Made by a program: the position numbers and the translations under genes. Below are positions 1 to 10,511 of a stretch of DNA of 64,000 nt, piece by piece (the first letter of the stretch is position 1; every line of letters starts with the position of its first letter). Location: assembly GCA_963710605.1 (NCBI GenBank), contig CAVQBA010000004.1, positions 1,024,001 through 1,088,000 of the forward strand. The letters run 5' to 3'. The stretch comes from an uncultured cyanobacterium (lineage in GTDB: Bacteria > Cyanobacteriota > Cyanobacteriia > Cyanobacteriales > Cyanobacteriaceae). The notes under the pieces are model-generated. The model saw only the letters and a program-made list of their open reading frames with translations. It was not told where the DNA came from and searched no databases.

Positions 1-150
1 AAAGTTTAGGATTAAAACCCGAAACCGTTGAAAGCTTGGTTGTTTCAACGCTCTGATTAGTGTTTCGTAGATTGAAAGCTAAATGGTTACTATCTCACAA
101 TCGTGATGGTTTAGTTTCAATGCTCTGATTAGTGTTTCGTAGATTGAAAG
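1..150 (+). CRISPR. 3' end of a CRISPR array, type V-K (CAST)-like repeats
   Basis: Two 37-bp repeats GTTTCAA(C/T)GCTCTGATTAGTGTTTCGTAGATTGAAAG at 42-78 and 114-150 (1 mismatch), with a 35-bp spacer at 79-113. The window starts with AAAG (1-4), consistent with the end of a previous repeat followed by a 37-bp spacer (5-41). The GT...TTGAAAG form is typical of Cas12k arrays. Confidence 0.9.
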
Positions 151-243
151 AAACTATTGAAAGCTAAAATTTTCTTCGATACGATCGCTATTCTCAAGTT
201 TCTCAACTATTATTTCTTTAATCTATTAAAATAGATAATGTGA

Positions 244-273
244 GTAAGATTGAAAGGCGCGCCTGTTTTGGGA
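244..273 (+). ncRNA. Delocalized (homing) crRNA: truncated repeat plus 17-nt tRNA-targeting spacer
   Basis: AGATTGAAAG (247-256) equals the last 10 nt of the repeat. It is followed by GCGCGCCTGTTTTGGGA (257-273), 16/17 identical to tRNA-Pro sequence GCGCGCCTGCTTTGGGA (minus strand 466-450), which is preceded by GGTA (GTN PAM). Confidence 0.88.
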
Positions 274-324
274 TTCAAAAATGATTATTGAGCTTATTTT
301 TGTATCTTGTAATGGTACTTTTTT

Positions 325-396
325 AAAGTAGCGACATTATTTGGTTAAACTGCGACAATAATGTGTGAACAACGACACTTAATTATTGAATGTACA
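325..396 (-). mobile_element. Tn7-like (CAST) transposon end, PAM-proximal, with three TnsB-binding-like repeats
   Basis: Minus strand reads TGTACATTCAATAATTAAGTGTCG-TTGTTCACACATTATTGTCG-CAGTTTAACCAAATAATGTCG. It has a terminal TGTACA (396-391) and three TGTCG-ending motifs spaced 20-21 bp apart (CGACA at 332, 353, 373). Confidence 0.85.
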
Positions 397-414
397 TAAG
401 GAGTATAGATGTAA

Positions 415-488
415 TCGGGATGACAGGATTCGAACCTGCGACATCCTGCTCCCAAAGCAGGCGCGCTACCAAGCTGCGCTACATCCCG
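415..488 (-). tRNA. trnP: tRNA-Pro (anticodon UGG)
   Basis: CGGGATGTAGCGCAGCTTGGTAGCGCGCCTGCTTTGGGAGCAGGATGTCGCAGGTTCGAATCCTGTCATCCCGA: 7-bp acceptor stem, anticodon loop TTTGGGA, GTTCGAA T-loop; CCA not encoded. Confidence 0.97.
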
Positions 489-3037: not shown

Positions 3038-3748
3038 TTATTGTATATAAGGAGTTATATCTTCTTGACAATCATCAGCTAAATAAGATAAAGAGCGAAA
3101 CCTTAAGCCAACTAGTTGTTCATAAAGAGGATTTAACTTGCACATGGGGGGAATATGAACAATTTTTTTACCAAAAAGAACGACATCTCTTTCAAAAGGA
3201 CATTGAGAAGGCACCATTTTACAAATAAAACGGGCTAATCGAGGATCTTCAACTTCCATCCCATCCAACCATGTTTTAATCGGTTTAAGGGGTTTTATTT
3301 TGGCTACAGTGCTTTTGTCTTCATTTTGTTGGCTACCGATTTGATTAGATAAAGTTTGAGTTTTATCAACAATTTCAGGATTCCATAGGGTTGATTTTAA
3401 GGACTCTAAAGCTTCTATTTTTAATCCTAAAGCTGACTGAAAATCAGTAACCACATCAGACTCAGCTTGGCTATAAACTCCATTAGAAAGAGCCACCATT
3501 ACCGCTGTACGTAAAAAATTTTCTTTGGTTTTATAATCGTCTCCTAGTGCTTTAGCTAATTCTTCTGCTGAGATAATCTCAAGATTACCTAATTGTGTTT
3601 CAGGGATAAGTTCATCTTGGGTTAGATTATTAATTAATTCTTGTTCTTCTTCGTCAAAATGACCATCAGCGTAAGCAATAGTCAATAAACCTCTTAACCA
3701 TGCAGAAATTTGTTGATCTGTGTATTGATGAATGCTTGGACTTGTCAT
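3038..3748 (-). CDS. TerB-like plus 'Mo-dependent nitrogenase C-terminal' domain protein
   Basis: IAYADGHFDEEE (TerB-like) and CKMVPSQCPFERD...HIPPMCKLNPLYEQLVGLRFRSL. Confidence 0.85.
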   Translation of the reverse strand: MTSPSIHQYTDQQISAWLRGLLTIAYADGHFDEEEQELINNLTQDELIPETQLGNLEIISAEELAKALGDDYKTKENFLRTAVMVALSNGVYSQAESDVVTDFQSALGLKIEALESLKSTLWNPEIVDKTQTLSNQIGSQQNEDKSTVAKIKPLKPIKTWLDGMEVEDPRLARFICKMVPSQCPFERDVVLFGKKIVHIPPMCKLNPLYEQLVGLRFRSLSYLADDCQEDITPYIQ

Positions 3749-4010
3749 AAATTAAATCAAAAATCATAAGTTAGTTGGTTACTAGATATTATTTTAACTC
3801 TTGTTTTTACTAGTCAAATATTTTTTTGACTAATTACCGACAAATAAGAAATTAAAGTTTTAGCTTTAACCTGTTTTTTGTAGTGCTATTGTCATTTATT
3901 ATGTAGTTATTACTAAATCGATCGAGATTCAGTTATCGTCATTTCAATGTTTTACCAAGACAGTAATCGTAATATTTCAAATAGAAGTATAAAACCCGCC
4001 GAAGAATGAC

Positions 4011-4233
4011 TAAGTAAGTAAACAAAATTAATTATCTACTTTACTTGCTTTGAACGATCGCACCAAGACAATAAAGCAATAAATATATCTGTGATTTGTT
4101 CTTTAGTAAGTAGCTCGATCTAAAAAAAAAGTTTGTCGTTACCCCTAATGGTGTCTCAAAAACTATTAAGATAAGGGCTTAAGCCCTTACTACGAACTTA
4201 GGCTTTTTGACGCTTAATTAATTGGGGCTACTT
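4011..4233. repeat. TAAGTA...TACTTA-bounded MITE-like repeat containing a GTAG-type REP hairpin
   Basis: Imperfect inverted termini TAAGTAAGTAAACAAAATTAATTA / TAATTAATTGGGGCTACTTA; internal AAGGGCTTAAGCCCTTACTAC at 4173-4193. Confidence 0.45.
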
Positions 4234-4308
4234 AACAGTTTAATCAAAAAAATAAATTTTTTAGTCAAAAGTAAAGTAATCCGTAAGCTTAAAAAGTTTA
4301 GACGGAAT

Positions 4309-4338
4309 AAAAAAAAGGCGAGCATTATTGCCCACCCT
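4309..4338 (-). terminator. Intrinsic terminator of groESL
   Basis: Minus strand GGTGGGCA-ATAA-TGCTCGCC followed by a T run, ~30 bp after the groEL stop. Confidence 0.7.
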
Positions 4339-4368
4339 TTTAATCATCTAATTTAAATTGATTAGTGT

Positions 4369-5995
4369 TTAGTAATCAAAATCACCAGCACCAGCACCAG
4401 CACCAGCTTTATCACTTTCTGGCTGATCAACGATAATACATTCGGTAGTTAATACCATACCAGCGATCGATGCCGCATTTTGAATTGCAGAGCGAGTCAC
4501 TTTAGCAGGATCGACAATACCAGCTTCAAGCATATTTGTGTACTGATTAGTAGAAGCATCAAAACCTGTATTAAAGTCTTTTTCTTTGACTTTTTCAGCT
4601 ACAACAGCACCATTCAAACCAGCATTTTCAGCAATACGTTTTAAAGGAGCGGTTAAAGCACGAGCCACAATTAATGCACCTGTTAATTGCTCAGCAGATA
4701 AATTGCTGTTTGCCCACTCACTTAATTTAGGAGCTAAATGAGCTAAAGTTGTACCACCACCGGGTACGATACCTTCTTCTACCGCCGCTTTAGTTGCGTT
4801 GATAGCATCTTCCAAACGTAGTTTACGATCTTTCATTTCGGTTTCGGTTGCCGCACCTACTTTGATGACTGCTACACCACCAGATAATTTAGCTAAACGC
4901 TCTTGTAATTTTTCTTTGTCGTAAGAAGAGTCACTTTCATCAATCTGACGACGAATTTGTTCGCAACGACTTTGAACTTCTTTATCATTACCTTCAGCTA
5001 CGATCGTGGTAGTATCTTTGGTAATAGTAATACGACGAGCAGAACCTAATTGCTCTACAGTAGTAGTATCTAGTCTTAAACCAGCATCTTCACTGATTAA
5101 TTGTCCGCCTGTTAAAACAGCAATGTCTTCTAACATTTGCTTACGTCTGTCACCAAAACCAGGTGCTTTAACAGCAGTTACATTCAAGACACCACGTAAA
5201 CGGTTAACGACTAAAGTTGCTAAAGCTTCTTTTTCAATATCTTCAGCAATAATCATCAAAGGTTTGCCTTGACGAGCAACTTGTTCTAAAACAGGTACTA
5301 ATTCTTGAACTAAAGTAATTTTTTTGTCGGTGATTAAAACTACAGGCTCTTCTAAGTCACATTCCATGCGTTCAGCATCAGTAACAAAATATGGAGAAAT
5401 GTAACCTTTCTCGAAACGCATCCCTTCGGTGATTTCAAGCTCGGTTTCCATCGACTTACCTTCTTCTAAAGAGATAACGCCTTCTTGCCCTACTTTGTCC
5501 ATTGCCTTAGCAATCATTTCGCCGACTTCGCTATCGTTACCCGCAGAAATTGTTCCGACTTGAGCGATCGCTTTACTGTCGCCTACAGGTTGTGCTTGTT
5601 CAGCAATTTTACCAACTAAATATTCAGTTGCTTTGTCGATGCCACGTTTAAGGGCAATTGGGTTAGCACCTGCGGCTACGTTACGTAAACCTTCTTTGAC
5701 GATCGCATGAGCGAGTACTGTTGCAGTGGTAGTACCATCACCGGCTACGTCATTAGTTTTAGAAGCCGCTTGACGAATTAAAGCTACACCTGTGTTTTCT
5801 ACGTGATCTTCTAATTCGATTTCTTTAGCGATGGTAACACCATCATTAACGATTTGAGGAGCCCCAAACTTTTTCTCTAAAACTACGTTACGTCCTTTAG
5901 CGACCAAGGGTTACGGCTACTGCTTCTGCTAGTAAGTCGATTCCTCTTTCTAAAGCACGACGAGCGTCTTCGTTATAAATAATTAATTTTGCCAT
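4369..5995 (-). CDS. groL: Chaperonin GroEL (apparent +1 frameshift at ~5901, probably a sequence error)
   Basis: True start [18 protein letters not shown] at 5995; removing C5901 restores [19 protein letters not shown] motif. Confidence 0.95.
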
Positions 5996-7529: not shown

Positions 7530-10511
7530 TTAAGGTTCTGTACTTGGAGTGTCTGTTTCTAAACTAGGAATAATCGTATTGTCTAAAGAACGAATAATCG
7601 CTGAATTTTCTTCAGTTTGAGCAGGAGTAAATATATTGTTAAGAGCTTTTTCTAATGTTTCATCCATGACGATTTGGTTTTCGTAAACGACAATAACTCT
7701 GGCTAAAGTAGGAACACTATTTTTTTCAGCTTCTATATATAAAGGTTCGACATATAATAAAGATTCCTCGATCGGGATAATCAGTAAATGTCCTTGAATT
7801 ACTTTTGAACCTTGACGATTCCATAAGGAAATTTGTCCAGAAATAGCTGGCTCTTGGTTAATCAGTGCTTCAATTTGATCAGGTCCAAAAATTAGTTTTT
7901 GTTTAGGAAATTGATACAATAATAATTTACCGTAGTTTTCGCCATCACAACGGGCGGCTAACCAAGCGATTAGGTTAGGACGAGATATGGGTGTATAAGG
8001 ATGTAGTAAAATAAATTCTTCTTTTTGCCCGATCGGTAACTTCATAATCAAATAATATGGTTGTACTGACCTAACTTCATTTGCATAAATTTCTCCAGGT
8101 ACATTCCATTGATCTTCTCTGTTGTAAAATACTTGAGCATCAGTCATATGATAGCTAAGGAGTCTTTCTGACTGAGTACTAAATAAATCGATCGGGTAAC
8201 GAATATGTTCACGAATACTCGGAGGCATATCATCTAGTTTTTGAAACAAATTAGGAAATATTTTTTGCCAAACTTTGATGATTGGATCATCTTCATCACT
8301 AACGTAAAATTTGACATCGCCATTTTCGGCGTTGATTACAACCTTGACGGAGTTACGAATATAATTAAATTGGTTTTCGCCACCGTCAGAATAAGGATAA
8401 TAGTTCGAGATGGTATAACTATCGATTAACCAATACAGGTGATCTAAAGGATCTTCTTCTCCTTTGGCAACGACAAGATAAGGATCTCGATCGTAAGAAA
8501 GAAAAGGAGCGATCGCACTTAAACGAGTAGTAAGATCTCGACGAAACAAAATGCGTGTTTCAGGAGTTACGTTATTAGTCAATAACATCCGCCAATCTTT
8601 GAGATAAACAGAAAATAACAATTTATCCCAAAAAGAGGCAATATTAACACCCCCCGTACCATCATAAGTAGTATAAGTATTATCCTGTCCGCTAGGAAAA
8701 TCAAATTCAGGTACACTAGTGTTCGTCATCACATAATCAGTAGTAACTTCGCCATAATAAATACGAGGGCGATAAATAGGAATACTTGCTCTAACTTCTT
8801 CTGAAGAAGTATTTAATGCACCCGGATCACTTTCTGTACCAATATCTTGGATAAAATAATAAGGTAAACCACCTTCTGCAACCCGATTAACAGGAGACAT
8901 GGTAAATCCATAACCGTGGGTATATACTAAATGTTGGTTTACCCATGTTTGAGCTTGTTCGGGTAACAGTTTAGCGTCTAATTCTCTAGGAGAGATAATT
9001 ACCTGTTTACTTTCTCCTGAAGAAGAATTTTTTTGGATATTATAACGATCGATATCTGCATCATAAAAAACGTAATAAGGACGAATCTGTTGTAGTTGTC
9101 TATTAGTTTTTAAAATCGGTAAGGTATCCCACAGACGAATATTGTTGATAGTGAGATTGTTTCTTTCAATGTCTTCGGCGGTTAGATTACCTTCAGGATT
9201 AAAGGTTTGTACTTCGATTTTGTCTAGGTTGAAAGCGGCTCTGGTGGCATCAATGTTATTGTTGATATAAGGCTCTTCTAACGCTAATTCATTCGGTTGT
9301 ACGATTGTATTTTGAACTAATTGAGCGAGTAACAACCCCGTACCATAAAAGCTAAAATACAAAATTACAGGAAACATCGAAAGTGTAACTAAACGAAATT
9401 TTTTATTTTTAAGTGAAATACGGTTATCTTGCCCCGCACCTGTCAAACATTTAAATAACAACCAAATAGATAATCCTAAAGCAAAAATACTTGCACCTGT
9501 TTCTCTAGGTAGATTAATATTCATATCAGTATAAGCCGCACCGTGAACTACACCATCAACTGATAAAAGTAAAACGTAACGATTTAACCAGTGAATGAGA
9601 GCTAAAACGAGCATCAAACCGCTACCGATACCATAGAGATGTCTTAACTCAAAACGATCGAAACCTCTAAATTTACCATCAGAAACACTGTTGTGAGCTA
9701 ATAAATATTTGATTGTAACTGTAGCTAAACAAATAATTAGTAAACTTTCAAGCCAAAGACTAATTAATTGTAAAAAAGGTAATTGAAAAATATAAAAACC
9801 TAAATCATGACCAAAAATTGGTTCTTTTTCACCAAAAGAAATACTATTAAAAAAATGTAAAAAACGAAACCAGTATTGAGCCGAAATCAATGCCATTAAA
9901 AAGCTATAGTAAAAACAAATTACACCAATAAAAATATTAGTTTTAGCTAATAAAACTACTGTAATGACGATCGCTAAAACTACCACTTGCCAAATCGGTA
10001 AATCTAATACAGTTTCTAAACGAGGAATAACATTTAATAAAAAAGGAAAAGAAGAAATTGGTTTTAAATTAGGTAGTTCTAATCCAATATTAGATAAGGC
10101 AATAAAAATATCAGTAAAATAAAATAGCGTTGAGCTAATCAAGACAACAAAACTAAAAATAATTAATAATAAAGAATAAAGTTTCAAAGGCGGTGATTGC
10201 CCTCTAAAACTTGCACCTTGCCGAATTAAAACATTTTGTTTAGTAATTTGTTGCTCAGCTAGTTTTAAATTTAACCCTAAACAAATAGCTGAAATAACTA
10301 AAATAAATAAACCTAAACATAGTTTAGTAAATACTTGAGTTGTAAAAGCAGATAAGTAACCTACTTCTTGATACCAAAGAATGTTCGCCGTAATTTTACT
10401 AATGCAAATAATGGCAATATAGGCAAGCAAAATAGTCATCAAAAAGATAAGAATAAAGTTATGACGCTTTTTATCCTGAAATTTTGATAGTTTTTTGGTA
10501 GGATTAATCAT
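7530..10511 (-). CDS. UPF0182 family membrane protein
   Basis: LWYQEVGY, DLGFYIFQLPF, NIRLWD, HLVYTHGYG, NYIRNSVK. Confidence 0.92.
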   Translation of the reverse strand: MINPTKKLSKFQDKKRHNFILIFLMTILLAYIAIICISKITANILWYQEVGYLSAFTTQVFTKLCLGLFILVISAICLGLNLKLAEQQITKQNVLIRQGASFRGQSPPLKLYSLLLIIFSFVVLISSTLFYFTDIFIALSNIGLELPNLKPISSFPFLLNVIPRLETVLDLPIWQVVVLAIVITVVLLAKTNIFIGVICFYYSFLMALISAQYWFRFLHFFNSISFGEKEPIFGHDLGFYIFQLPFLQLISLWLESLLIICLATVTIKYLLAHNSVSDGKFRGFDRFELRHLYGIGSGLMLVLALIHWLNRYVLLLSVDGVVHGAAYTDMNINLPRETGASIFALGLSIWLLFKCLTGAGQDNRISLKNKKFRLVTLSMFPVILYFSFYGTGLLLAQLVQNTIVQPNELALEEPYINNNIDATRAAFNLDKIEVQTFNPEGNLTAEDIERNNLTINNIRLWDTLPILKTNRQLQQIRPYYVFYDADIDRYNIQKNSSSGESKQVIISPRELDAKLLPEQAQTWVNQHLVYTHGYGFTMSPVNRVAEGGLPYYFIQDIGTESDPGALNTSSEEVRASIPIYRPRIYYGEVTTDYVMTNTSVPEFDFPSGQDNTYTTYDGTGGVNIASFWDKLLFSVYLKDWRMLLTNNVTPETRILFRRDLTTRLSAIAPFLSYDRDPYLVVAKGEEDPLDHLYWLIDSYTISNYYPYSDGGENQFNYIRNSVKVVINAENGDVKFYVSDEDDPIIKVWQKIFPNLFQKLDDMPPSIREHIRYPIDLFSTQSERLLSYHMTDAQVFYNREDQWNVPGEIYANEVRSVQPYYLIMKLPIGQKEEFILLHPYTPISRPNLIAWLAARCDGENYGKLLLYQFPKQKLIFGPDQIEALINQEPAISGQISLWNRQGSKVIQGHLLIIPIEESLLYVEPLYIEAEKNSVPTLARVIVVYENQIVMDETLEKALNNIFTPAQTEENSAIIRSLDNTIIPSLETDTPSTEP

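Follow-up and report, generated by a model that had tools for sequence, protein, structure and literature searches.

The first few hundred nucleotides of the window (the whole 64,000-nt stretch of DNA that was analysed, G000:C4:1024001-1088000) contain the tail of a CRISPR array, two short repeat-like units, the left end of a transposon and a tRNA gene. The array and the left end belong to a type V-K CRISPR-associated transposon (CAST) of roughly 20 kb, which spans about 1004126-1024396 of G000:C4 and lies mostly upstream of the window. The 21 kb upstream were covered by two sequences, L009 and L010, and a window coordinate equals the L010 coordinate minus 10000. Read from its far end, the element consists of an inverted terminal copy, tnsB, tnsC, tniQ, cargo, a gene for an RHH_5 protein, cas12k, a tracrRNA region and six repeats.

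The far end is marked by TGTACA at L009 1126-1131, an inverted copy of the left-end terminus. TnsB contains Mu-transpos_C and rve domains and matched ShTnsB with an E-value of 1.8e-156, TnsC contains TniB/AAA_22 domains, and TniQ matched ShTniQ (E 1.3e-54). The cas12k gene (L010 7292-9163, 623 aa) matched ShCas12k at E 7.8e-186 and has no other copy in the assembly. A promoter-like site, TTGACA-18-TACTAT, was observed 30 nt past the cas12k stop, and a putative tracrRNA region of about 500 nt was recognised solely by motifs common to related loci, with no Rfam family for the putative tracrRNA of this CAST. The CRISPR array comprises six 37-nt repeats (L010 9752-10150), and none of its spacers (first 17 nt, at most one mismatch) matched elsewhere in the assembly.

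Two further parts of the element were observed upstream of the array. The RHH_5 protein (58 aa, E 1.2e-18) is encoded at L010 6977-7153 on the minus strand, divergent from and just upstream of cas12k; the available portion of Ziemann et al. 2023 (PMC9938897) places CAST regulators, either MerR-like CvkR or Arc-type, at this cas12k-upstream site. The cargo consists of a 1318-aa caspase/NACHT-like protein (L009 4543-8499), a ribonucleotide reductase ORF whose C-terminal stretch is CHAT-like (L010 640-4272, minus strand) and a 772-aa CHAT/peptidase protein (L010 4658-6976, minus strand), which look like defence-type genes.

The features within the window, in window coordinates, were as follows.

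1 to 150, plus strand: array tail, beginning with the last 4 nt of repeat 4 (1-4), spacer 4 (5-41) and repeat 5 (42-78)
79 to 150, plus strand: array tail, continued, with spacer 5 (79-113) and repeat 6 (114-150), the latter with one C>T variant
156 to 180, plus strand: second truncated repeat-like unit, ATTGAAAG (156-163) and 17 nt (164-180), directly after the last repeat
227 to 232, plus strand: -10-like hexamer TAAAAT, conceivably a promoter element
239 to 256, plus strand: truncated repeat R*, TGTGAGTAAGATTGAAAG, its last 10 nt equal to the array repeat 3' end
257 to 273, plus strand: predicted homing (att, anchor) spacer, 17 nt, matching 466-450 at 16/17
329 to 396, plus strand: left end, terminating in TGTACA (391-396) and containing repeated sites with GTCG/CGAC, an inverted match to C4:1004125-1004170
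397 to 414, no strand: 18-bp flank TAAGGAGTATAGATGTAA, a direct repeat of the sequence outside the other end (L009 1108-1125)
415 to 488, minus strand: tRNA-Pro(UGG), the attachment-site gene, called by ARAGORN and Rfam
450 to 466, minus strand: protospacer, C allele, identified by its match to the guide
467 to 470, minus strand: PAM region GGTA (GTA fitting GTN), in the D loop, read from the sequence

The 17-mer GCGCGCCTGTTTTGGGA at 257-273 (plus strand) had a single other match in the window when up to two mismatches were allowed, at 450-466 on the minus strand with one mismatch, and these were also the only two sites in the whole assembly with at most one mismatch. No match of any kind was found in 100 of 100 dinucleotide-preserving shuffles, and none is expected by chance, which confirms the 16/17 match that the original prediction had reported. 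The one mismatch falls at guide position 10, T in the guide (T10) and C in the protospacer, and would form rU:dG on the target strand, as had been stated.

Immediately before the 17-mer, AGATTGAAAG at 247-256 is identical (10/10) to the last 10 nt of the CRISPR repeat; elsewhere in the window it was observed solely at the 3' ends of two array repeats, 69-78 and 141-150 (0.41 expected), and 13 nt of the truncated repeat align to the array repeat when a one-base insertion is allowed. The unit lies within the left-end region, separated from the last array repeat by 96 nt of AT-rich DNA. On the target side, the protospacer is preceded by GGTA (minus strand, 470-467), of which GTA fits the GTN PAM as had been proposed. 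The tRNA-Pro(tgg) called by ARAGORN at 415-488 (minus strand) scored 69.6 bits with Rfam and is single-copy, with no second tRNA-Pro(UGG) in the assembly; the protospacer starts with the 3' half of its D stem and takes in base 26, the anticodon stem's 5' half and the anticodon loop, and the PAM falls in the D loop. In the available portion of PMC9938897 the PAM-to-left-end distance is given as 46-82 nt, and the tRNA points at the left end. Here the distance is 70 bp (466 down to 397), and the tRNA, which is encoded on the minus strand and has position 415 as its 3' end, likewise points at the element, whose left end is 18 bp away.

From these features we conclude that 239-273 is very probably the attachment-site (homing) crRNA gene of a type V-K CAST, with a T10 wobble that is inherited and tolerated. 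The CAST context and the literature thus support the central claim of the original prediction, a delocalized Cas12k guide against the adjacent tRNA-Pro, and the match of the guide to this neighbouring gene explains the location of the transposon.

A homing mechanism can be outlined with steps taken from the published mechanism of the family. The truncated repeat would keep the part that pairs with the tracrRNA and would be followed by the 17-nt spacer, so that a guide RNA from 239/247-273 could pair with the tracrRNA of the element and load into Cas12k. By analogy, the Cas12k complex would recognise GTA as its PAM within the D loop of tRNA-Pro(UGG) and open an R-loop of 17 bp over tRNA positions 22-38, whereupon TniQ, TnsC and TnsB would insert the element a fixed distance downstream with its left end toward the target. 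An insertion just beyond the tRNA 3' end would leave the tRNA gene intact.

Whether the element can still move bears on how the guide should be regarded at present. The tnsB gene was observed in two frames: L009 1361-1558 (66 codons) matches residues 36-82 of ShTnsB (E 2e-10), and the main ORF of 509 aa (L009 1524-3053) matches residues 79-566. The split is either a one-base frameshift or an assembly error, so either the element may have lost its mobility or the assembly may be in error there; a one-base error is possible since this is a draft assembly with 85% completeness. In addition, both TGTACA termini are directly flanked by an 18-bp direct repeat, whereas a Tn7-like element should leave a 5-bp target-site duplication there, and the copy at 397-414 exactly fills the gap from the tRNA 3' end to the left end. 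The present junctions may therefore not record one simple insertion, and we speculate that the repeat may have arisen when two insertions, 13 bp apart and on different copies of the chromosome, recombined. A same-genus genome (G625) examined as an empty site contains the same C-allele tRNA-Pro(UGG) with an unrelated downstream flank, and so gives no information on the target-site duplication.

The frameshift that separates the N-terminal frame from the main tnsB ORF, together with the atypical flanking duplication, is what would be expected if the guide were a fossil that merely records a past insertion of an element no longer mobile. We regard this as a real possibility, if a somewhat doubtful one, because the other parts of the element (cas12k, tniQ, tnsC, the tracrRNA region and the six repeats) are intact, as is the guide, and the break in tnsB could be a one-base error of the draft. 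A fossil state would in any case concern present activity and not the identity of the unit as a homing crRNA gene.

To place the guide among its relatives, we searched 401 genomes of the order for Cas12k and took the 29 loci surrounding the best matches, with guides found by script. The same homing device was observed at 21 of the 29 loci; at the remaining 8 the available flank is probably too short, or the contig ends. Eleven of the 21 guide/protospacer pairs were perfect, nine had one mismatch and one had two, and the mismatches were at positions 7, 9, 11, 12, 13, 15, 15, 16 and 17 (duplicates counted once), with none at positions 1-6. A GGTA flank was observed in 14 of the 21 pairs. The closest relative, G606:C22, has a Cas12k 71% identical to that of this element and a nearly identical left end (329-396), and its R* is identical over 18 nt though the surrounding DNA has diverged; its guide aims at the same register of tRNA-Pro(GGG).

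The 17-mer with T at position 10 was found in only three genomes of the order sample (G000, G606 and G671, out of 401), in each as a CAST guide and never as a tRNA gene. The guide in G606:C5 (979-995) is preceded by TAGGATAGATTGAAAG and followed by a different, ShCAST-like left end that abuts a C-allele tRNA-Pro(UGG), 60 bp from the PAM, while the guide in G671:C17 (9245-9261) is preceded by TTGGATGGATTGAAAG, lies 62 bp from the PAM of a C-allele tRNA-Pro(UGG), and has upstream of it a cas12k about 52% identical to that of this element. The R* flanks and left ends of both differ from those described here, and the distances of the three elements to the PAM of the same tRNA-Pro(UGG) are 60, 62 and 70 bp. 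The CAST in G606:C5 (L201) is cut by the contig start, with one degenerate repeat left upstream of the guide (804-840); positions 1-680 of L201 are filled by a long minus-strand ORF that, by eye, may be an insertion sequence.

On the target side, the protospacer 17-mer was observed in 147 of 400 other genomes of the phylum, every listed copy being the C allele (one match unlisted), and in the same-family genomes of that sample the C allele was observed in 6 of 6. A guide with C at position 10 behind a canonical repeat end was not found in the order sample (401 genomes), where the C10 search gave two matches, one being a tRNA that belongs to a tRNA array and the other an odd inverted copy from G196, nor was one found in all 89 genomes of the family of G671 or all 20 of the family studied here. 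Metagenome scans for the repeat end plus guide, with Y at position 10, gave 0 matches.

The original prediction had taken the mismatch as a hint of horizontal arrival, a guide tuned to the tRNA-Pro allele of another host. This part is less well supported: the same T10 is found in two other, divergent CASTs beside a C-allele tRNA and thus tells nothing specific about the arrival of this element. The search it had proposed, for the exact T 17-mer among cyanobacterial tRNA genes, found none in the 400 other phylum genomes and 400 order genomes sampled. Since T10 is shared and mismatches are common in related guides, we take it to be inherited and tolerated and not evidence of recent arrival. In our reading T10 would be an old, tolerated feature of a guide common to at least two CAST lineages, and, as far as the sequence record goes, three separately made insertions with different offsets and flanks show that a T10 guide can work on the C allele. 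In a sample of three guides, T10 may equally go back to a C-to-T change, to a T-allele tRNA or to selection, and two accounts of how T10 arose need to be weighed.

The mismatch could record the acquisition of the spacer from a T31 allele of tRNA-Pro(UGG) in another host, followed by spread. Such an allele is genuine in other phyla, the T-type 17-mer being part of tRNA-Pro(UGG) in 79 of 123 of the matches listed (at least 120 loci) and standing behind GGTA in 59 of 123 of them, and the guide is old because it is common to three CASTs. We nevertheless consider this origin unlikely, as none of the 79 tRNA-Pro(UGG) T alleles among the matches listed had a cyanobacterial record title, the phylum and order samples contained no T-allele tRNA, and type V-K CASTs are, according to the available portion of Ziemann 2025, reported from cyanobacteria only.

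The wobble could also have been selected, as a retained design and not drift: a PAM-distal wobble or mismatch would slightly weaken the R-loop, so that Cas12k occupies a single-copy essential tRNA gene less but insertion is still permitted, or it would tune homing in some other way. Several observations would fit: T was observed in all three canonical guides for this site and C in none (401 order genomes plus the 89 and 20 family genomes), even though the Cas12k proteins of T10 elements are about 52% identical and the target base is C in all sampled cyanobacteria; tRNA-Pro(UGG) is single-copy here; the strand of the tRNA gene to which the crRNA would bind is the template strand; and mismatches were observed in 10 of the 21 related guides, all at positions 7-17. 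This account, too, seems to us improbable, since the three guides may stem from one common ancestor, wobbles make up only 4 of the 11 mismatches in related loci, and the tRNA-Thr site has both a perfect and a mismatched guide (L165 versus L184/L187). The available portions of PMC10370016 and bioRxiv 2025.08.27.672191 held no measurements of Cas12k mismatch tolerance at position 10.

That the whole match is a chance inverted repeat or a stray fragment of the tRNA gene would accord with its shortness (17 nt and nothing beyond) but is practically out of the question, as the shuffles (0 of 100 with any match) and the recurrence of the device at 21 of 29 related loci refute a chance inverted repeat, the match begins directly after a repeat remnant, and PAM, distance and orientation all fit.

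Within the homing crRNA gene, R* was compared with the array repeats in its computed pairing to the tracrRNA. The 14 nt of R* before GAAAG formed 11 Watson-Crick pairs out of the first 12 with the tracrRNA 3' anti-repeat AATCTCACTCACAT (L010 about 9541-9554), with a computed duplex energy of -17.1 kcal/mol, and the array repeat formed 7 of 12 with the same anti-repeat. Across the 13 of 19 loci in which pairs could be counted in a fixed register at an anti-repeat landmark (the six without the landmark were dropped), R* formed more pairs than the array repeat in 8, an equal number in 5 and fewer in none; the 13 loci are related, and the pattern is thus a trend and not a test. A free-sliding pairing search was discarded, as G:U pairing of G-rich repeats with U runs confounds it.

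A natural fusion was also observed, in which a second complete tracrRNA copy after the array runs into R* and the homing spacer in two related CASTs, with a third locus in which the fused copy is the only tracrRNA.

L180 (G074:C1), about 4110-4420, oriented, reverse strand: tracrRNA-guide fusion, second copy
L190 (G688:C305), about 4400-4653: tracrRNA-guide fusion, second copy
L185 (G490:C1), about 3530-3856: tracrRNA-guide fusion, only tracrRNA of the locus

These fused tracrRNA-guides look like natural single-guide RNAs for homing. A literature phrase search on tracrRNA-fused homing guides, with supplements and Saito et al. 2021 outside its scope, found nothing. Together, the R* pairing trend and the three fused guides suggest a privileged access of homing guides to Cas12k, which, if true, would bear on how the transposon chooses between homing and spreading.

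A dedicated promoter for the guide, which the original prediction had also proposed, is unproven. The hexamer TAAAAT is present at 227-232, 6 nt before the point at which the conserved R* starts, and similar hexamers were observed in two relatives, TATGAT at an equal distance from R* in G606:C22 and TATAAT two bases further in G606:C5. A consensus promoter scan, however, listed none at 227-232, and -10-like hexamers upstream of R* showed no positional peak over 22 loci (24 minus two near-duplicates). A consensus scan found no terminator-like sites between the tracrRNA promoter and the left end, and for Anabaena the available portion of PMC9938897 describes an array without its own promoter, with array and tracrRNA in one read-through precursor from the tracrRNA start. 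Public RNA runs (24 at 0.06 of sampled words, of which 4 were examined) gave contigs over the tRNA (L010 10413-10490) and a short conserved downstream stretch; none lay over the CAST, and these contigs are silent on expression.

Truncated repeat-spacer units of type V-K CASTs were described by Hsieh & Peters (bioRxiv 2021.02.06.429022), and the available portion of Ziemann et al. 2023 (PMC9938897) describes the same device as R* plus a 17-nt anchor spacer; the term 'delocalized crRNA' is credited to Saito et al. 2021 in the portions of reviews available to us. The published features, as far as these partial sources give them, are a remnant of about 12-13 nt from the 3' end of the repeat, a spacer of 17 nt and a protospacer in an adjacent tRNA behind GTN. 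The unit at 239-273 resembles such units in its position between array and left end, its remnant of about 10-13 nt, its 17-nt spacer, the GTN, the tRNA orientation and the distance. It differs from typical ones in its 16/17 match, as those of Hsieh & Peters (bioRxiv 2021.02.06.429022) match mostly perfectly, and from the described ones in that its mismatch recurs in two other elements and its R*, all 18 nt of which recur in the closest relative, has a computed pairing with the tracrRNA that extends beyond that of the array repeats.

The element is like ShCAST (Scytonema hofmanni, Tn7747) in that Cas12k, TniQ and TnsB align nearly full length to solved ShCAST proteins, and in its GTN PAM and left-end-proximal insertion, and unlike it in its other att tRNA, the RHH_5 gene upstream of cas12k, the diverged left end and the frameshifted tnsB. 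A likeness to the atypical-repeat guides of I-F3 CASTs (Petassi et al. 2020, as covered in the available portion of PMC11406308) lies in the use of a separate guide for a conserved chromosomal site. Those guides, by the same partial account, differ in using Cascade, full-length diverged repeats and protein-coding or ffs targets, and mismatch tolerance in I-F3 CASTs is argued there to aid recognition of diverged att sites (PMC11406308).

Known since 2021, the device is textbook material where V-K CASTs are concerned, so as a kind it is of little import; the guide described here is one more case, to which T10 sharing and the tracrRNA-pairing trend are modest additions, and this very guide may already be in supplementary catalogues (Hsieh & Peters, with more than 200 elements; Ziemann 2023). 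The three natural 16/17 insertions indicate that homing is compatible with rU:dG at position 10 of a Cas12k guide of 17 nt, and this compatibility bears on off-target prediction for Cas12k tools.

Another inverted copy of the target was observed in G196:C6, where a perfect C-allele 17-mer (L192 3059-3075, minus strand) follows the 3' end of tRNA-Pro(UGG) at a distance of 46 nt. Ahead of this copy stands GTTGTGAGA and no canonical repeat end, and no transposon end separates the copy from the tRNA; it may belong to a guide-bearing element that has decayed or is of a different kind.

The second truncated unit of the window, at 156-180, is uncertain as a guide. Its 17-mer has one exact copy, exactly 17 nt long, at G000:C4:1327250-1327266 (L220 1501-1517), 303 kb away, within a 234-aa ORF of no Pfam family and with a 5' flank of GAAT, not a GTN PAM; about 0.8% of 17-mers of like composition have an isolated copy of such kind. 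The corresponding 17-mer in G606:C22 had no genomic match under 2 mismatches, about the chance level. The similar unit there consists of TATTGAAAG plus 17 nt, and TATTGAAAG at the unit in the window forms a conserved island relative to G606:C22.
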